Under the pieces are notes generated by a model. That model made no database searches. It was not told where the DNA came from and saw only the letters and a list, made by a program, of their open reading frames with translations. Positions 885 through 22,126 of a stretch of DNA of 24,820 nucleotides are shown here, one piece after another (positions within the stretch are counted from its first letter, which is position 1; each line of letters begins with the position of its first letter). The position numbers and the translations under genes are program-made. Source of the stretch: a virus (taxonomy: Duplodnaviria; Heunggongvirae; Uroviricota; Caudoviricetes); IMG/VR virus record IMGVR_UViG_2711768053_000009; one strand, given 5' to 3'.

Positions 885-1184
885 ATGATGGAAAAAACAG
901 AAAACAAACCGATTGTAATTGGTGCTGATGCTGCTCCGTTTAAGTTTGAGTTGTCTCAACTGGTGGAGATGCGCATCAGTGATGAATGGGGTGAGGTTAA
1001 AGCCCGTGCGCAGTATGCGGATGGCGAAAACCAGTACTTGATCCACTACAAGGCAGCTGACGGTCGCGCCACGACGGAGTGGTTTGGTGAGTCAATGCTG
1101 GAAGCAACAGAAGATGATCGTCATCCAGGTTGCCCGGTATTTGCTGGTATGGAATTGCCGGAAGGTGCAGTCGTTACTGAGTAA
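885..1184 (+). CDS. Hypothetical phage protein (99 aa, acidic)
   Basis: ATGATG start with AGGAGA 4-6 nt upstream; intact ORF; no motif recognised. Confidence 0.55.
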   Translation: MMEKTENKPIVIGADAAPFKFELSQLVEMRISDEWGEVKARAQYADGENQYLIHYKAADGRATTEWFGESMLEATEDDRHPGCPVFAGMELPEGAVVTE

Positions 1185-1304
1185 CAGGCATTACAGCAGC
1201 CCTTCAGTGAGGGGCTGCGATAATGCCAGGCTCACCAACAGCACCCGCCGCGCACCCAGCGCACTGGCTGTTAGTGAGCTTTTTTATTCATCAAGCGAGG
1301 CTGT

Positions 1305-2099
1305 ATGAGCGAGAAATTGAAGATCGTCTATCGCCCGTTACAAAAACTGTCTCCGTATGCGCACAACGCCAGGACACACAGCCCTGAGCAGGTGGCACAA
1401 CTGGTAGAAAGCATTAAGCAATTCGGCTGGACCAATCCGGTGCTGATTGACGAAAAGGGCGAAATTATTGCTGGTCACGGTCGCGTGATGGCGGCTGAGG
1501 CGCTCAAAATGGATTCTGTTCCGGTCATTGTTCTGTCTGGCCTGACGGATGATCAGAAAAAGGCGTACCGCCTGGCAGATAATCGCCTGCCGCTCAACGC
1601 TGGCTGGGATGAAGATCTGTTACGGATGGAGCTGTCGGACCTAATCAATGCTGATTTTGATATCTCCCTGACAGGATTCAGCCCGACAGAAATTGATGAA
1701 CTGTTGACGGATGTTTTGCCCGGTACAGGAAATAATGAGGAGGAACCGTACACGACGAAAATTGATACGCCTGTTTATGAGCCGTCAGGCGATAAACCGG
1801 ATATCAGTGAACTGTACGACGATACGAAAACTCAGGAGCTGGTCAGCCGGATACGTTCGGCGTCCCTTGAGCCTGATATCGAAAAATTCCTCCTGTGCGC
1901 GGCAGAACGTCACACGGTGTTTAATTTCAGCAGAATTGCGGACTATTACGCTCACTCCCCCGCTGAAATTCAGCGCCTTTTTGAGGAGTCGGCGCTGGTG
2001 ATCATTGATTATCAGCAGGCTATTGAAAATGGATTTGTCCGGATGACGCAGCGCATGGTGGAGATCATGCATGGCGGGGAGGAGGAGGAATATGCGTGA
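1305..2099 (+). CDS. ParB-like nuclease domain (ParB/sulfiredoxin N-terminal fold) protein with uncharacterised acidic C-terminal domain
   Basis: N-terminal about 100 aa (YRPLQKLSPYAHNARTHSPEQVAQLVESIKQFGWTNPVLIDEKGEIIAGHGRVMAAEAL...) has the ParB N-domain signature including the G-x-G-R box. The stop overlaps the start of the next gene (ATGCGTGA). Confidence 0.75.
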   Translation: MSEKLKIVYRPLQKLSPYAHNARTHSPEQVAQLVESIKQFGWTNPVLIDEKGEIIAGHGRVMAAEALKMDSVPVIVLSGLTDDQKKAYRLADNRLPLNAGWDEDLLRMELSDLINADFDISLTGFSPTEIDELLTDVLPGTGNNEEEPYTTKIDTPVYEPSGDKPDISELYDDTKTQELVSRIRSASLEPDIEKFLLCAAERHTVFNFSRIADYYAHSPAEIQRLFEESALVIIDYQQAIENGFVRMTQRMVEIMHGGEEEEYA

Positions 2100-3024
2100 T
2101 GATTTTTGCGCCTTTATTCTGACTCACGGGCGTCCGGACAAAGTTCTGACTTACCGGACGTTGCGTCGTGCTGGCTATACCGGGAAAGTTTTTATCGTTG
2201 TTGATGATGAAGATAAAACCCGGCATCAGTACATAGCAGAATTTGGTGAACAGGTGCTGGTGTTTTCCAAAGCCGATATCGCCAGTCGTTTTGACGAAGC
2301 CGATAATTTCGGTGACCGCCGCTCAATTTTTTACGCCCGTAATGCCTGTTTCGACCTGGCAAAACTGGTCGGGTGTAAATACTTCATTCAGCTCGATGAT
2401 GATTATCACGAGTTCCAGTTTCGGGTGGATCGCAACTATGACCAGGCCTATTTTCCGATAAGGAAACTGGATGCGATCCTTTCTGAAATGCTGGCGTACT
2501 ACGAATCAATACCTGCTCTTTCCATCGCTATGTCGCAGGGCGGGGATTTTCTTGGTGACAATGGCGGCCATGCTTCGTGGGTGAAACGCAAGGCAATGAA
2601 CAGCTTTATCTGTTCGGTTGATCGACCGTTCTCATTCATGGGGCGCATTAACGAGGATGTGAATACGTACACGAATCTCGGTCGCTGTGGTGAATTGTTT
2701 ATGACGATCGGTGCTGTCCAGTTAGGACAGAAACAGACGCAGAAAAACAGCGGCGGAATGACCGAGCTGTATCTGGATTCCGGAACCTACGTTAAAAGTT
2801 TTTACTCCGTCATGTATGCGCCGTCGTGCGTAAAAATCTCACTGATGGGTGCCAGCCATAAACGCATTCACCATCAGGTCACCTGGAACAATGCTGCAGT
2901 AAAAATCCTTCACGAAAAATACAGGAAGAAGACACCCTGCATATCAATGGGGGTGACAAATGATTCCGTATTCGAAAGTCGAGTCTCTGGCAGCGTGCCG
3001 GATGACTGCACAACAAATCGCTGA
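2092..3024 (+). CDS. Soluble GT-A fold (family-2-like) glycosyltransferase, substrate unknown
   Basis: ATG at 2092 preceded by GGAGGAGGAGG. Translation has beta1 CAFILTHGRPD, then VFIVVDDEDKT (the hhhVDD motif of GT2 enzymes, residues about 34-44) and YFIQLDDDYHEF (DXD motif, residues about 98-107) at the spacing seen in SpsA-like GT2 enzymes. No C-terminal transmembrane helices, so unlike GtrB. The provided ORF 2071..3024 starts 7 codons upstream. Confidence 0.6.
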   Translation: MRDDFCAFILTHGRPDKVLTYRTLRRAGYTGKVFIVVDDEDKTRHQYIAEFGEQVLVFSKADIASRFDEADNFGDRRSIFYARNACFDLAKLVGCKYFIQLDDDYHEFQFRVDRNYDQAYFPIRKLDAILSEMLAYYESIPALSIAMSQGGDFLGDNGGHASWVKRKAMNSFICSVDRPFSFMGRINEDVNTYTNLGRCGELFMTIGAVQLGQKQTQKNSGGMTELYLDSGTYVKSFYSVMYAPSCVKISLMGASHKRIHHQVTWNNAAVKILHEKYRKKTPCISMGVTNDSVFESRVSGSVPDDCTTNR

Positions 3025-3211
3025 CGTTCTGGATGTTGATCTGAACCGACTGAAAGAAAATCGGGAAGCAATGACAAATTTTTATGCGTCCATCCGTAAG
3101 GGCAGAGCGAAAGGTGAAGCCGAGCTACGGGCGGCATTGTTTAAGCTTGCCAGAAAAGGGGATGCCTTTGCCCTGCGCGAACTACTCAGGGTGGATAAAA
3201 ATCAGGACTAA
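2960..3211 (+). CDS. Small helix-turn-helix-like DNA-binding protein, likely packaging-associated
   Basis: ATG at 2960 with GGGGGTGA 5 nt upstream; sits immediately before the terminase small subunit gene. The segment MTAQQIADVLDVDLNRLKENRE resembles an HTH. Overlaps the 3' end of the glycosyltransferase ORF in another frame. Confidence 0.5.
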   Translation: MIPYSKVESLAACRMTAQQIADVLDVDLNRLKENREAMTNFYASIRKGRAKGEAELRAALFKLARKGDAFALRELLRVDKNQD

Positions 3212-3214
3212 CTG

Positions 3215-4306
3215 ATGAGCAGACCGGACTGGGGGGCGTTGCAGCAGGAGTATATTGCTGAATACACCCGCTCCGGTATATCTCCGGTGGCATGGTGTGA
3301 AGCAAGGGGACTGAATTACGCAACAGCCCGTCGTTACATCAAAAAACCTCCGAAAAATGCGCAGGCAGAATTGCGCAAAACTGCGCAAAAAAGTGCGCAG
3401 AAAAAACCTGCGCAGACTGCGCAAAAGCTGAACGGAAAATCTCAGGAAAAAAAGCCAGTATCCGATGCGTACCTGAATGAGGGCGATGCGGAAGAAATTT
3501 CGTTCTGTCCTGATGAATTCGGTATTTCAGACCAGCAGGCGAAATTCGCAATGCTGGTTGCCCAGGGGAAAAAACTCGTTGAGGCATATCGCCTGGCAGG
3601 ATACGAGTCAGAGGGGAATGCGGCCTACGTAACCGCCAGCCAGCTCCTAAGAAATCCTAAGGTTTTTCGCGCTATCAGCTACTTCCGCAATCAGTACCAG
3701 AAACGCTATACCGCAGACCTGGATTTACTGGTGAGTCAGTTGATGGCCATTGTCCAGGCCGACCCCAATCAGTTGGCACAATTTCGCCGTGTTAACTGCC
3801 GTTATTGCTGGGGCGAGAATCATCACTACCAGTGGCGCGATATAGCAGAATTCGATAAGGCAGCGGCGCAGGCCTCCAGAGATGGCAAACCCGAGCCGGA
3901 ATATGGTGGCCTTGGCTTTGTTGATAACGCCATACCCAATCCGGACTGCCCGAAGTGCTGCGGTGAGGGAACGGGGCAGCTTTATATGGCTGATACCACT
4001 CTGCTTGATGGGGATGCGCGGCAATTATATGCAGGGGCAAAGCTCGGGAAATTTGGTGTTGAGATCCTGCTGGAGGATAAGGCTGCCGCCCGGCGCGAAC
4101 TTATCAAGCTGATAATGGCGACGAAAGGAAGTTCTGCTGGTGGTGCAACTGACAGTCGCAATGATCTGGAGCTTGAAGGACTGAGGCTTCGCAACGAAAA
4201 GCTGCGCACTGAGATTGAAAACCTCAAAAAAGGCGTGGGTGGTGAGAATAACGAAATAATTATCCACAACTCTCTGCCGATGCCGGGAGTGGATAATGTC
4301 GATTGA
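3215..4306 (+). CDS. Terminase small subunit (Terminase_2-like core) with C-terminal Cys cluster and coiled-coil
   Basis: The segment ISDQQAKFAMLVAQGKKLVEAYRLAGYESEGNAAYVTASQLLRNPKVFRAI follows the conserved small-terminase pattern. CRYC...CPKCC is a zinc-ribbon-like cluster. Immediately upstream of, and overlapping, the large terminase gene. Confidence 0.7.
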   Translation: MSRPDWGALQQEYIAEYTRSGISPVAWCEARGLNYATARRYIKKPPKNAQAELRKTAQKSAQKKPAQTAQKLNGKSQEKKPVSDAYLNEGDAEEISFCPDEFGISDQQAKFAMLVAQGKKLVEAYRLAGYESEGNAAYVTASQLLRNPKVFRAISYFRNQYQKRYTADLDLLVSQLMAIVQADPNQLAQFRRVNCRYCWGENHHYQWRDIAEFDKAAAQASRDGKPEPEYGGLGFVDNAIPNPDCPKCCGEGTGQLYMADTTLLDGDARQLYAGAKLGKFGVEILLEDKAAARRELIKLIMATKGSSAGGATDSRNDLELEGLRLRNEKLRTEIENLKKGVGGENNEIIIHNSLPMPGVDNVD

Positions 4307-5624
4307 AATCTACCTCCCAAAACCTCATGAGGGGCAAATAGCTGCATGGACGGCGGCAATAGAGGAACGCTTCCACGCGGTATGCTGTGGTCGTCGCTGG
4401 GGTAAAACGGTGATGCTGGTGAACATCGCTACCAGTTTCGCTACGCGGAAATTTGCCGTTCCTACCACCGGGCAACTTATCGCGGGTAGGGTGGGGATTT
4501 TTACCGCGCAATACCGCCAGTACCAGGAAATCTGGGATGAAATTAGCGCCGTTCTGCAACCGCTGATCCTCAGTCAGTCAAAAAATGAAAAGCGCATCAT
4601 TCTCCGGAACGGTGGCCGCATCGACTTCTGGGTTACGGACAACAACAAACTGGCCGGTCGTGGGCGTAAATATCACGCTGTGCTGATTGATGAGGCCGCA
4701 TTCACTAAATCGCCGGAAATGCTCGAGGAAATCTGGCCCCGAGCTATACGCCCGACGCTTGTCGATTACCGCGGCTGTGCGTGGGTATTTTCCACACCAA
4801 ACGGTATCGACGAGAGCAATTTTTTCTACGCGATATGCCACGATGAATCCCTGGGATTTGTCATGCACCATGCGCCAACTTCATCGAATCCGTATATTCC
4901 GAAAGAAGAACTGGAGGAAACGGAGAAGAAATCCGATCCGCGCGTCTGGCAGCAGGAATATCTTGCAGAGTTCGTAGACTGGTCCAAAGACGCGTTACTC
5001 GATGTCGATAAGCTGCTGGTGGACGGTCAACCAATTGAGATGCCGCCGTACTGCGACATGATTTTCGCAGTGATGGATACGGCGTTGAAAGGCGGGACCG
5101 AAAATGATGGTACTGGCGTGGTGTATTTCGCTTATGAGTCAACGTATTCGGACGAGCCAAAACTGACGATTATTGACTGGGATGTGACGCAAATTAAAGC
5201 GTCATTGCTTCCTGAATATATCCCCGGCGTTTATGACAACCTCGAGCGCCTCGCGAAATTATGCCGTCCGCGTCTGGGCAGCCAGGGTATTTTTATGGAA
5301 GACGCCGCGATGGGGGCAATCCTCAACCAGAAGGCGGAAACCGAAGGCTGGGATATGACGCCGATTAAATCGGCACTAACCAGCAAGGGCAAAGACGAAC
5401 GGGCGGTGATGGCATCCAGCTACCACTATCAGGGGATGTGCAAAATCGTCCGGGAGGCTTACGACAAGACCGTTTCATTCAAACGCACCACCGCAAACCA
5501 CCTCATAAAACAAATCGCCGGGTTCCACCTGGCAGACAAAGATGCGCATAAACGTGCTGATGACCTTTTCGATTGTTACACCTATGGATTGATCATCGCG
5601 CACGGTAATTACGCGGAATTGTAA
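4296..5624 (+). CDS. Terminase large subunit (ATPase plus nuclease)
   Basis: Walker A CGRRWGKT and Walker B AVLIDEAAF are present; about 440 aa; located between the small terminase and portal genes. Confidence 0.85.
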   Translation: MSIEIYLPKPHEGQIAAWTAAIEERFHAVCCGRRWGKTVMLVNIATSFATRKFAVPTTGQLIAGRVGIFTAQYRQYQEIWDEISAVLQPLILSQSKNEKRIILRNGGRIDFWVTDNNKLAGRGRKYHAVLIDEAAFTKSPEMLEEIWPRAIRPTLVDYRGCAWVFSTPNGIDESNFFYAICHDESLGFVMHHAPTSSNPYIPKEELEETEKKSDPRVWQQEYLAEFVDWSKDALLDVDKLLVDGQPIEMPPYCDMIFAVMDTALKGGTENDGTGVVYFAYESTYSDEPKLTIIDWDVTQIKASLLPEYIPGVYDNLERLAKLCRPRLGSQGIFMEDAAMGAILNQKAETEGWDMTPIKSALTSKGKDERAVMASSYHYQGMCKIVREAYDKTVSFKRTTANHLIKQIAGFHLADKDAHKRADDLFDCYTYGLIIAHGNYAEL

Positions 5625-5643: not shown

Positions 5644-7080
5644 ATGGCTGAGATCGAGATTTCTGTAAATCTCAGTTCTTCGCTGATGCGCATTCTTGAG
5701 GCTGAAGAAATTCAGCCGGGAACCGACATTGGCTATGAACTGTGTAAACTGCTGTGGCAGTACCATCCGCTGGGCGGGAAACTTGTCGAAAAACCCATAC
5801 TTATGGCGATGTGTAAGCCGCGCCAGTACAACGTGGAGACAGACCCTGACGAGCGGGTTGTGCGGCGTTTCCAGGAGGTGTGGGAGCGCATGAAGGTGAA
5901 CGAGAAGATTAAAAATCTGTTTTTCCTGTCTCGTTGCTACGGTGCTGCAGCGATCGGCGTGGGCACCGACAGTGTTTCATGTCGTGAACCGCTTCCGACG
6001 TTCGGACTGACAGAAGATGACGTGTATATCAACGCGTGGGACCCGTTGAACGCTTCCGGTTCGATGGTGACTGACCAGAACCCCAACAGCCCGTTTTTCC
6101 AGGAAGCCAATAAAAAACTGAAGATTGGCGGAAAAGACTGGCATCCGTCACGCACACTGAAAATCTTCAACGGCACACCGATTTATCTGGAGTTTCAGAG
6201 TTCATCGTTCGGATTCACCGGGCGAAGCGTGTTTCAGCGCGTTCTTTATTCCCTGAAATCCTATATCAATACGATGGAGGCGAATGATCTCGTCAGCCAG
6301 AAGGCAGGCGTACTGGTGGCTAAAGTTGTGCAGAACGGTTCGAAAATTGACGGGATCATGGCTGCTGCCACGGGGCGTAAAAGGGAAAACGTGAAAGCCG
6401 CCAAAAATAAAGGCGTGTTGAGTATTGGAAAAGACGAAGACGTAAGTTCACTGAACCTGCAAAACATCGACGGGGCGCTGAATACATCCCGCGACAACAT
6501 CATTGCTGATATTGCCGCCGGGAGTGACGTTCCGGCCATTATTATCAAGGAAGAAGCATTCAGTAACGGATTCGGTGAAGGTAAGGAGGACTCGAAAGCC
6601 ATCAGCCAGTATATCGATGGTGTACGCCAGCAGATTGAACCTGTGATGGATTATTTCGAACGCCTGGTGCAGTACATCGCCTGGAACGAGGAATTTTATC
6701 AGTCGCTGAAAAATGATTACCCGGACATCATAACCGACGACTATAAAACCACGTTTTACCAGTGGCGACGTGAATTTACCGCGACGTGGCAGGAGCTGGT
6801 GGAGGAGTCGCCGGACAAACGCCGGGAAAGCGACAGTAAAGTGATTCAACAGGCGATAGCACTTTTCTCTGCCGTGTCGCCACAGGTTGATCCTGAAAAC
6901 CGCGCCGCCCTCGCTGAATGGCTGGCAAGCCTTGTTAATGCCACGCAAACCTATGGCGAAGCTCCACTCATCATTGATGTGGATGCGCTGGCGAATTATG
7001 AACCACCGAAGCAGGAGACGCCTGATGGCAATTTCCAGCCGGGCGGTGAGGAAGAAGAAACGGATCAGGACTCTGTATGA
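5644..7080 (+). CDS. Portal protein
   Basis: 478-aa ORF directly after the large terminase with an acidic C-terminal tail; size and position are typical of portal proteins. No specific motif verified. Confidence 0.65.
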   Translation: MAEIEISVNLSSSLMRILEAEEIQPGTDIGYELCKLLWQYHPLGGKLVEKPILMAMCKPRQYNVETDPDERVVRRFQEVWERMKVNEKIKNLFFLSRCYGAAAIGVGTDSVSCREPLPTFGLTEDDVYINAWDPLNASGSMVTDQNPNSPFFQEANKKLKIGGKDWHPSRTLKIFNGTPIYLEFQSSSFGFTGRSVFQRVLYSLKSYINTMEANDLVSQKAGVLVAKVVQNGSKIDGIMAAATGRKRENVKAAKNKGVLSIGKDEDVSSLNLQNIDGALNTSRDNIIADIAAGSDVPAIIIKEEAFSNGFGEGKEDSKAISQYIDGVRQQIEPVMDYFERLVQYIAWNEEFYQSLKNDYPDIITDDYKTTFYQWRREFTATWQELVEESPDKRRESDSKVIQQAIALFSAVSPQVDPENRAALAEWLASLVNATQTYGEAPLIIDVDALANYEPPKQETPDGNFQPGGEEEETDQDSV

Positions 7081-20959: not shown

Positions 20960-21307
20960 ATGAGGACATGGGGCCGCGTCACCGACGTGAACGGCAATAA
21001 AAAATGGGTTGCTGTAGAATCTGACGCCAACGGTGATTTCTCCTACGGCTGGCTGACGACGCTCATTCAGACGTTAAAGCTGGGGGTGGGGGAGTCGCCG
21101 TTTTATGCGAATTACGGCATTCCAGCACAGCAGTGCATCGTGCAGCAGATTTACCCGGACTACTATGTGAACATGGTTCAGCAACAGTTTGCCGGGTATT
21201 TTGCATCACTGGCAATTTCAAGGGTAGATGGGGCTGAGAACCCCACCTATAACATCGATGTTGTGTTTTTTAATGGGACCAGTTACCGGATGCAGGTTCC
21301 GGTGTGA
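20960..21307 (+). CDS. Baseplate protein, gp25/W-like (Mu gp46 position), putative
   Basis: ATG at 20960 with GGTGAGGG upstream; about 115 aa; lies between the spike and J-like genes. The provided ORF 20927..21307 starts upstream inside paralog 2. Confidence 0.45.
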
Positions 21308-21657
21308 GGCAAATTTTCGGGCATCAGTTGGGCCAGTGGCGTGTTAAGAAGTTCATCGCGTGGCATGACAATCCATCCACTTTTGCGTAGTAAGTGAATT
21401 GCCCATTCTGTGGTGATAACTGAGCCTGATTTGTGGTGCTCAATGTGGGTAACCGAGCCGTTTCTGACGCGCATGATGATGTCAACATTCAGAGGGGATT
21501 GTGTGCTGGTGGTATCTTCGCGCAGCTTCTTCTCGCACTCGATGAAGTATCGGCGGATCTGGCGTCCTTTTTCGTTGCGCTCGACCATTGCCAGTTCTTT
21601 GGCGGTGTCCAGGGTGAGGTGGTAGTCCTTGCGGCGGCGGCCTGGAGTTTTCGCCAA
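21283..21657 (-). CDS. KilAC-domain (phage antirepressor C-terminal domain) protein, probably a truncated remnant
   Basis: Translation ...[42 protein letters not shown] matches the conserved KilAC antirepressor C-domain. The ORF has no ATG before residue 24 (TTG is the only possible start), and an in-frame stop lies 11 codons upstream at 21691-21693. The 3' end overlaps the convergent gp25-like gene. Confidence 0.4.
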
Positions 21658-21697: not shown

Positions 21698-22126
21698 CTA
21701 CTTATTTTCAGACACACATTTTTCAAAATTTTTTATCGAGTCATTGAAAACTGAATTCATTATCTCATAAGTTTTATGATCTATCTTTTTGTCTAGATAA
21801 TCTTTATTGTTTTTCTTTATTTTTTCCTTAGTATCAGTAATGGCTTTTTTACAAATTTGATAATTTATCTGCTGATCGTTTAAACCGCCTCCATTGACAA
21901 TTAGAGAAATAGCTGTATTCATGTCTTGTATATTGTAGGAATAGTGTAATGTGTCATTGGTTGGATGGCTGGGATTATCATAATAAACATTACCGAATTT
22001 CATTAACATTATTCCCGATTTCCCATAAACAGAATCAGATAAGTATGCGGCATTCATATTTCCGGCAGTAAAATTATCAGTATGACATATAAAACGCCGA
22101 CCATATTGAAGCTGTAATTTATGCAT
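21698..22126 (-). CDS. AT-rich cargo ORF encoding the mature part of a putative secreted protein (unknown function)
   Basis: 142-codon ORF in sequence that is visibly far more AT-rich than its surroundings. No convincing RBS at its own ATG. It is in frame with the upstream signal-peptide ORF 22178..22237, separated by a TAA. Confidence 0.45.
   Translation of the reverse strand: MHKLQLQYGRRFICHTDNFTAGNMNAAYLSDSVYGKSGIMLMKFGNVYYDNPSHPTNDTLHYSYNIQDMNTAISLIVNGGGLNDQQINYQICKKAITDTKEKIKKNNKDYLDKKIDHKTYEIMNSVFNDSIKNFEKCVSENK

Follow-up and report, generated by a model that had tools for sequence, protein, structure and literature searches.

A ParB-like protein and a TAGT-family glycosyltransferase encoded as a translationally coupled pair in bacterial and archaeal viruses

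The stretch of DNA considered here (IMG/VR virus record IMGVR_UViG_2711768053_000009; 24,820 nucleotides, referred to as the window in its full length) covers the late genes of a Rac-like lambdoid prophage, among them two overlapping genes for a ParB-like protein, henceforth the adaptor, and a soluble glycosyltransferase (GT) of the TAGT (TET-associated glycosyltransferase) family. Our analysis revealed a near-absolute, translationally coupled pairing of these two across bacterial and archaeal viruses, including a natural fusion, and showed that the constant partner of the GT is not the ParB fold but a domain of about 100 amino acids at the C-terminus of the “ParB” protein (the C-domain). We tentatively propose, with a probability of about 0.42, that the adaptor and the GT are a two-subunit, ParB-like-tethered glycosyltransferase that would modify phage DNA at packaging.

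Constitution and pairing of the two proteins

The features of the pair in the window are as follows:

1305-2099, plus strand: ParB-like adaptor gene, 264 amino acids, isoelectric point (pI) 4.55 (ParB_N, phrog_620)
1305-1712, plus strand: ParB/Srx N-terminal nucleotide-binding-type domain with a short helical extension, residues 1-136
1713-1748, plus strand: acidic, predicted disordered linker, residues 137-148 (pLDDT, the predicted local distance difference test score, below 50 over residues 137-150; variable in the alignment)
1749-2054, plus strand: C-terminal domain of the GT partners, residues 149-250 (conserved motifs, helical)
2076-2090, plus strand: purine-rich Shine-Dalgarno-like run GGGGAGGAGGAGGAA within the end of the adaptor gene, serving the GT start (read from the sequence)
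2092-2099, plus strand: gene overlap of 8 nucleotides, ATGCGTGA, with the GT start ATG at 2092-2094 and the adaptor stop TGA at 2097-2099
2092-3024, plus strand: TAGT-family GT-A glycosyltransferase gene, 310 amino acids, pI 8.0 (Pfam PF20691, phrog_842, GT-A fold)
2113-2757, plus strand: TAGT catalytic core, residues 8-222 (Pfam match range; invariant alignment columns)
2758-2955, plus strand: conserved C-terminal extension of the GT clade, residues 223-288, GGMTELYLDSGTYVKSFY...RIHHxVxW (invariant alignment residues)
2956-3024, plus strand: lineage-specific GT tail of 22 amino acids with the stop codon (alignment columns 301-339; list of open reading frames)

Loci around homologues of the GT were gathered from viral contigs, public assemblies and cultured phages and scanned with custom hidden Markov models (HMMs) of the GT, the ParB N-domain and the C-domain. 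The C-domain is coded directly upstream of the GT in 154 of the 156 loci with enough upstream sequence, and in 145 of these 154 the ParB N-domain lies on the same protein. Dereplication at 80% GT identity yielded 55 GT lineages, 46 of them usable for the upstream test; 45 have the C-domain directly upstream, as does the 46th (L091), in which the GT is split. The stop of one gene and the start of the other overlap by 4-20 nucleotides in 40 of the 45 lineages, the overlap being 11 nucleotides in 24 and 8 nucleotides, as in the window, in 12. Searching in reverse, with the C-domain of the archaeal virus HHTV-2 as the query, retrieved 79 loci, 75 with the GT directly downstream and three more with one inserted gene (78 of 79 in total); the remaining one shows no GT within the available 2.9 kb. 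In both directions the joint conservation of the two genes is much stricter than a preliminary description of this DNA, made from the letters alone, was able to foresee. Since the HMM matches have E-values of 1e-35 to 1e-103 and the same overlap recurs in dozens of unrelated lineages, the pair is real rather than a chance juxtaposition.

In several lineages, the 191-kb Vibrio phages among them, the protein ahead of the GT is a stand-alone C-domain of 126-156 amino acids, and one cluster (P0379) is a natural fusion of a short TAGT with a ParB_N-like domain and the C-domain, followed by an overlapping window-type GT, the terminase large subunit (TerL) and the portal. Two-GT variants were also recovered in Lactobacillus-phage contigs. 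Together, the near-absolute pairing, the coupling and the fusion argue strongly, at the genomic level, that the two proteins physically form one enzyme of two subunits.

The GT matches Pfam PF20691 with 120.9 bits (gathering cut-off 27.5; E-value 9.1e-35), its residues 8-222 aligning with profile positions 4-205 of 205, and phrog_842 with an E-value of 3e-103. The PHROG name of this family derives from the T2/T6 beta-glucosyl-HMC-alpha-glucosyltransferase, and in RefSeq the E. coli protein is entered as “GREB1-related protein” or “hypothetical protein”. The family is large, with at least 8000 matches in a collection clustered at 90% identity, and the enterobacterial GT is about 60-65% identical to that of a Sphingomicrobium contig (Sphingomonadales). 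Its core contains the motifs G13-R14, VVDDED (D38 and D41), DDD (D102-104, nucleotides 2395-2403) and N187-E-D-V190, of which R14, D38/D41, D102-D103-D104 and E188-D189 are invariant in 34 aligned GT sequences. This is the R...DDD...ED[Y/F] set described for phage GT-A enzymes that glycosylate 5-hydroxymethylcytosine (5hmC) in DNA (bioRxiv 10.1101/2023.12.21.572611), with EDV as the third motif instead of EDY/F. Both motifs quoted in the preliminary description, KVFIVVDDEDKT and QLDDDYHEF with its D102-D104, are present, and its coordinates and the overlap it read were correct when the sequence was re-read.

The GT has the GT-A (nucleotide-diphospho-sugar transferase) fold; an AlphaFold2 single-chain model built with 34 homologues is confident over residues 1-150 and poor beyond them, and a PDB sequence search with the GT profile returned nothing significant. 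Both proteins lack a membrane segment (maximum Kyte-Doolittle means over 19 residues of 1.24 and 1.08), and with the TAGT match and the modelled fold the earlier assignment of the second protein as a soluble GT-A enzyme stands. The C-terminal extension reaches past the Pfam TAGT model, and many of its positions are invariant; when the GT is modelled alone, however, pLDDT stays below 50 over residues 218-262 despite this conservation, and the extension is plausibly a docking surface for the partner. Most GT homologues end near residue 288, without the tail of 22 amino acids of the E. coli GT, which overlaps the next small open reading frame (ORF; 2960-3211) by 23-65 nucleotides, depending on the start used. 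Although the ORF list holds an earlier in-frame ATG at 2071, we place the GT start at 2092, because all 33 homologues align from MRDDF and the GGAGG run (2076-2090) precedes this position.

The adaptor matches Pfam ParB_N with 29.1 bits (cut-off 26.3) and phrog_620 with an E-value of 2e-89, and has the ParB/Srx fold. Its GxxRxxA nucleotide-binding motif reads G57-H-G-R60-V-M-A63, and N21, S36, G41, G57, H58, R60, A63 and N93 are invariant in ten diverse partners. Adaptor residues were mapped to the cytidine triphosphate contacts of chromosomal ParB by spacing alone (residue list in PMC13229309), and nucleotide binding by the adaptor is a prediction. The nearest relatives of the N-domain are not partition proteins but modules found at the N-terminus of phage DNA methyltransferases (phrog_498, E-value 1e-51; PADLOC MTase_II, E-value 4e-39; many tblastn matches annotated as methylases). 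The features of a canonical partition ParB, namely a central helix-turn-helix (HTH), a parS site and a ParA partner, are missing. The preliminary description had seen in it a DNA-binding or nicking module, a view that finds no support in a strongly acidic protein (pI 4.55) lacking both an HTH and a nuclease motif; it had also regarded the ParB module as the element coupled to the GT, whereas the co-varying part is the novel C-terminal domain.

This C-domain opens with the invariant motif Y149-[ST]-x-K-I-x-x-P-x-Y-E-P (nucleotides 1749-1784), and its helical part carries FLxxAAxRHxxFNF, IADYYAH and LVIIDxxxAIxxG. No relative of it was found in Pfam or the PDB, a PDB sequence search with the C-domain profile giving nothing significant. 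In an exhaustive HMMER scan of 1.84 billion representative proteins it was recovered in 1196 clusters at 50% identity, and it stands at or near the C-terminus in all but one of the best 150 matches listed of these 1196 clusters. Judged by its sequence, it appears to be a new domain described by no database before, and we define it here as the constant companion of the GT. Across the family the median pI is 8.96 for the GT (basic) versus 4.66 for the adaptor (acidic).

Genomic setting and distribution

Across the 55 lineages the cassette has no recurrent neighbours other than the terminase subunits, small and large, and portals. The terminases just downstream of it belong to at least five unrelated families (Terminase_3, Terminase_6N, T7-type, TerL_ATPase/nuclease and GpA), and TerL lies at most 4 kb downstream in at least 27 of 44 lineages. 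The ParB-GT-terminase order is found in Lactobacillus phage c5, where the pair is ORF1/ORF2 directly after cos, in a Porphyromonas phage whose GT is 28% identical to that of the window, in Nocardia phage NTR1 and in the haloarchaeal virus HHTV-2; c5 is a virulent phage. Among 5426 complete E. coli genomes, 889 have an intact pair and about 680 more have remnants. The K-12 gene ynaK is a 5' remnant of the adaptor gene, comprising its first 254 nucleotides at 92.9% identity and truncated next to ydaY in the defective Rac prophage (for example, NZ_LM993812.1 1393891-1394144). In the 191-195-kb Vibrio phages (pv27, L007 7459-8888, and relatives), a GT of about 333 amino acids follows a stand-alone C-domain protein of 139 amino acids, and the pair lies in the DNA-replication module, away from the terminase; no hydroxymethylase was found in one 50-kb segment of a 191-kb Vibrio phage.

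In certain lineages the cassette has acquired further enzymes, and such insertions of donor enzymes are a new observation. In Lactobacillus c5-like contigs a UDP (uridine diphosphate)-galactopyranose mutase (GLF, E-value 1e-74) directly follows the GT and overlaps it (L090 6839-7984; L091 10827-11969), which suggests a galactofuranose donor in these phages. Elsewhere a fusion of a histidine phosphatase with a cytidylyltransferase-like domain, probably making an activated donor, is inserted between the adaptor and the GT (L221 814-1782; L228 2145-3101; L253 3311-4306). The presence of donor-sugar enzymes within the cassette therefore argues for the GT being an active transferase with lineage-specific donors. 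In the contig L091 a further GT is encoded ahead of the ParB-like gene. Separately, in L002 (17837-20316) and L003 (8659-11138) four consecutive GT2-family genes follow the capsid gene of a phage that also has the ParB-GT pair, a run reminiscent of virion-protein glycosylation clusters.

The surroundings of the pair in the window include the following features:

1228-1287, plus strand: terminator-like hairpin followed by U6 (RNA folding free energy -25.9 kcal/mol, z -4.67, 0 of 200 shuffles as good)
2960-3211, plus strand: small ORF related to part of terminase small subunits (phrog_309, E-value 2.5e-22)
3215-4306, plus strand: terminase small subunit (TerS) gene
4296-5624, plus strand: TerL gene (TerS and TerL assigned by Pfam Terminase_2 and Terminase_6N and by phrog_51 and phrog_2)

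The window runs from an endolysin gene (133-516) through an Rz-like ORF, an ORF of 99 amino acids (885-1184), the hairpin, the ParB-like gene and the GT gene to the small TerS-related ORF, TerS, TerL, the portal, the head genes and the contractile-tail genes, and the pair thus lies upstream of the terminase genes, as the preliminary description had it. A prophage integrated next to ttcA in E. coli W, located in NC_017635.1 from 1500539 on, is 97.4% identical to it over 98% of the window length; the RefSeq start of the small-ORF orthologue in that prophage is at the position equivalent to 3002. The hairpin, which sits between the ORF at 885-1184 and the ParB-like gene, escaped a simple terminator scan, its stem being long and interrupted. 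It is likely the boundary between the lysis genes and the ParB-GT-terminase block and is presumably read through in late transcription; no promoter-like site was found upstream of 1305.

Several other genes of this prophage deserve mention. The ORF at 885-1184 (plus strand), between the lysis genes and the cassette, belongs to phrog_1935 (E-value 1e-60), is unassigned in function and has no annotated gene at its position in the RefSeq record of the E. coli W counterpart. The portal gene (5644-7080, plus strand; phrog_146, E-value 5e-75, and Pfam Phage_portal_3) appears for the same prophage in RefSeq records as “anti-CBASS protein Acb1 family protein”, which looks like a propagated misnomer. 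Two minus-strand ORFs (21283-21657 and 21698-22126) lie amid baseplate genes of the plus strand and may represent a moron insertion; one of them is anti-repressor-like (phrog_14211, E-value 2e-46) and the other is without a family. Outside the window, the E. coli W prophage (L001 19974-23177) encodes a GmrSD_N (DUF262) protein, an AAA_15/DUF3696 ATPase and a 325-amino-acid protein without a family. These three genes have the look of a defence system akin to the type IV enzymes directed against glycosylated DNA, a curious cassette for a phage coding an enzyme of a DNA-GT family.

Relationship to known systems

The characterised phage GT-A enzymes of the TAGT kind glycosylate 5hmC in DNA (PMC8256090; bioRxiv 10.1101/2023.12.21.572611). 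The GTs associated with 5mYOX, the 5-methylpyrimidine dioxygenases (Burke 2021, PMC8256090; Pyle 2024, bioRxiv 10.1101/2023.12.21.572611), resemble the window GT in their PF20691 match, GT-A fold and R / DDD / ED residues, and likewise are phage-encoded, soluble and often near ParB-like and terminase genes. They cluster, however, with enzymes that produce 5hmC or 5-hydroxymethyluracil (5hmU), namely a C5-methyltransferase, a 5mYOX dioxygenase or both, or else a ThyS-type hydroxymethylase, none of which was found beside the window pair, and unlike them the window-type GT has an extra conserved C-terminal extension of about 65 amino acids and an obligate partner domain. The T2/T6 beta-glucosyl-HMC-alpha-glucosyltransferase has been assigned to TAGT, and the T6 TAGT is proposed to add a second glucose on DNA (PMC13390438). 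It belongs to the same Pfam family as the window GT, and indicates that a TAGT can use a sugar hydroxyl on DNA as acceptor; it differs in that it acts on already glucosylated 5hmC, made pre-replicatively, and it has no detectable pairwise similarity to the window GT at a tblastn E-value of 1e-5. GREB1 shares a related GT domain with the window enzyme but is a eukaryotic protein of 1949 amino acids that O-GlcNAcylates (adds O-linked N-acetylglucosamine to) a transcription factor and is without a ParB partner.

On the side of the adaptor, the nearest functional precedent is ParB176, which is needed for the phage thymine dioxygenase 5mYOX176 to act on double-stranded DNA (O'Toole et al. 2026, PMC13229309). 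Both are small proteins with a nucleotide-binding domain, short helices, a disordered linker and a C-terminal domain but no DNA-binding domain (the layouts were compared by description), although ParB176 has 194 amino acids and the adaptor 264. Like the adaptor, ParB176 is encoded next to its enzyme, in this case the post-replicative DNA-modifying 5mYOX176, and GTs and terminases often co-occur with it (PMC13229309). The clients differ, being a GT for the adaptor and a 5-methylpyrimidine dioxygenase for ParB176, and no dioxygenase was found with our pair. In the ParB_N-DNA methyltransferase fusions (phrog_498; PADLOC MTase_II, PDLC03229) it is the N-terminal stretch of about 140 amino acids that is close to the adaptor, and their genes too are late or packaging-proximal; there the ParB module is covalently attached to the catalytic domain, whereas in the adaptor it is attached to a domain that would recruit a separately encoded enzyme. 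The idea that ParB proteins steer DNA-modifying enzymes during packaging reportedly goes back to Aravind and co-workers. ParB genes beside phage DNA-modification genes and GTs had been noted earlier (PMC8256090; bioRxiv 10.1101/2023.12.21.572611), which qualifies the preliminary statement that the pairing was not recognised as a characterised system. We found no experimental work on this ParB-GT pair in the literature.

The prophage seroconversion GTs, GtrABC and TarP, belong to lysogenic conversion and act at or on the membrane, with lipid carriers or teichoic acid as substrates, in contrast to the soluble window GT, which is coupled to a ParB-like protein in a late operon. The window pair shows neither membrane association nor GtrA or GtrC partners and does not lie in a lysogenic-conversion locus, its neighbours being lysis and terminase genes. 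With a soluble GT and no Gtr partners, O-antigen conversion was rejected as unlikely; the preliminary description had likewise disfavoured it, and the late-operon site and the occurrence in virulent phages and an archaeal virus agree with that view.

Proposed mechanism and its alternatives

In the mechanism that we favour, the two genes would encode two subunits of one enzyme. The basic, soluble GT would be the catalytic subunit, using a nucleotide-activated sugar through its R / DDD / ED site. The acidic adaptor would bind the basic GT via the C-domain and the preceding YTxKIxxPxYEP peptide, the C-domain probably completing the poorly self-folding C-terminal half of the GT, and the N-domain, of a nucleotide-binding type, would load, hold or activate the GT on replicated phage DNA by analogy with ParB176; the fusions of ParB_N with methyltransferases point the same way. 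The cassette is presumably co-transcribed with the directly following terminase genes, and with such expression the sugar would be added post-replicatively to DNA about to be packaged, where it might protect this DNA from nucleases in the next host or mark it for them. From the genomic evidence we infer the formation of the complex, DNA as its target and this biological role. In its most novel form, which we regard as improbable, the proposal would have the complex place the sugar directly on ordinary DNA without any hydroxylated base; the acceptor could then be the backbone, a ring nitrogen or an exocyclic amine, perhaps confined to particular sites close to where packaging begins.

A number of observations weigh against DNA modification, the foremost being the acceptor. 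To our knowledge, every characterised phage DNA-sugar pathway first makes a hydroxylated pyrimidine, and every characterised TAGT-type DNA enzyme that we know of needs 5hmC/5hmU or a sugar that such a base already bears. The acceptor-making enzymes looked for were a 5-methylpyrimidine dioxygenase, a thymidylate-synthase-like hydroxymethylase and a C5-methyltransferase. None was found in the whole E. coli W counterpart prophage, in the complete 31.8-kb genome of phage c5, within 10 kb on either side of three distant homologues with precomputed Pfam matches, among the recurrent neighbours of the 55 lineages, or in the Pfam families matched by at least two of the 150 nearest unclassified ORFs from 51 lineages. 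A hidden dioxygenase was likewise sought, and none was recognised either in the ORFs scanned one by one (c5 ORF25, ORF44 and ORF45 and the hypothetical proteins of E. coli W) or among the families listed for the 150 ORFs nearest to the pair, a negative obtained with no TET/JBP profile and leaving room for isolated divergent or single members. The same absence was reported in general terms by a published survey of phage GTs. The association of TAGT with a TET/JBP (5mYOX) dioxygenase or another 5hmC/5hmU generator is thus absent here, and with it the source of the acceptor on which each characterised TAGT-type DNA enzyme depends. The acceptor would then have to come from the host or differ from any 5hmC/5hmU made by the phage. 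That the neighbours of the pair include no recurrent base-hydroxylating enzyme is documented here for the first time. Further, a minority of the partners, at 9 of 154 loci in one direction and 5 of 79 in the other, lack the ParB N-domain, and DNA tethering through it is therefore not essential everywhere; the adaptor is very acidic and without an HTH; GREB1, a TAGT-related enzyme, glycosylates a protein (PMC7968844); and some Lactobacillus phages propagated in the laboratory have a split GT or retain just a fragment of it, which shows that it is dispensable in culture. Thus, of the DNA sugar modification suggested in the preliminary description, what stands is that the GT belongs to the one GT family whose characterised phage members glycosylate DNA bases; as no acceptor-making enzyme was found, the modification itself stays conjectural.

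The main competing explanation, somewhat unlikely in our estimation, is a protein glycosyltransferase system in which the GT would O-glycosylate the invariant Tyr/Ser/Thr of the adaptor (YTxKIxxPxYEP), or a terminase, portal or capsid protein presented by the adaptor; the adaptor's own peptide would be the most economical target. This would accord with the O-GlcNAcylation of oestrogen receptor alpha (ER-alpha) by GREB1 (PMC7968844), with the invariant hydroxyl-rich peptide in a disordered linker just before the partner domain, with recurrent neighbours that are all packaging and head genes, with the lack of an enzyme generating a DNA acceptor, and with a ParB domain that is optional in some lineages. 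It sits less well with the usual N-terminal module of the adaptor, which is of the type fused to DNA methyltransferases, with the characterised phage members of the GT family, which act on DNA, and with the closest functional precedent, the activation of a DNA-modifying enzyme (PMC13229309). Moreover, the downstream terminase, portal and capsid families differ completely between lineages, so that a conserved virion-protein substrate is unlikely and the adaptor alone is constant.

Other targets have less in their favour. The GT could act on a host molecule with the adaptor as its regulator: it might modify the precursor of an envelope glycopolymer, masking receptors in the manner of TarP or Gtr, or a nucleotide or second messenger, or it might drain a UDP-sugar pool. 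The prophage context and the UDP-galactopyranose mutase adjoining the GT in Lactobacillus phage contigs, an enzyme typical of cell-wall glycan pathways, speak for such a role, but we think it quite unlikely for two soluble proteins without membrane partners, encoded in the late operon beside the terminase and not beside the attachment site. The pair also occurs in hosts with very different envelopes (virulent phage c5 and an archaeal virus), and the identity of 60-65% is kept between Enterobacteria and Sphingomonadales, whose cell walls are unrelated. Historic annotations as “ParB-like nuclease / partition protein”, together with the site next to the terminase, would cast the adaptor alone in packaging or partition (pac/cos recognition, a nuclease, plasmid-like segregation), with the GT as an unrelated neighbour. 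This is highly improbable and essentially excluded, since adaptor and GT co-occur almost without exception and are translationally coupled, whichever of the two a search starts from; it is further at odds with the natural fusion to a GT, with the lack of ParA and HTH, with a partner domain that occurs without ParB_N but essentially never without the GT, and with the location of the adaptor before terminases of at least five unrelated families. A ParB of partition or of a plasmid-prophage was also considered and ruled out by the missing ParA and HTH, the integration of the lambdoid prophage at ttcA and the late-operon site.

The components of this cassette are of known kinds, and the ParB-GT neighbourhood had already been remarked on in surveys. 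Intact copies in ordinary laboratory strains such as E. coli W make the question open to simple experiments in E. coli. Sugar modifications of phage DNA are a major route round restriction, CRISPR and other defences, and are also the targets of type IV enzymes. If the pair modifies DNA, it points to a new acceptor or chemistry, and the role of ParB as an activator of DNA-modifying enzymes would extend from dioxygenases (and fused methyltransferases) to glycosyltransferases. If it modifies protein, it would represent a new, nearly universal phage protein-glycosylation module beside the packaging genes. Should the sugar be placed directly on unhydroxylated DNA, it would be a chemically new class of DNA modification, the cassette for which would be carried by roughly every sixth complete E. 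coli genome and by phages whose hosts span four or more bacterial phyla and the haloarchaea.

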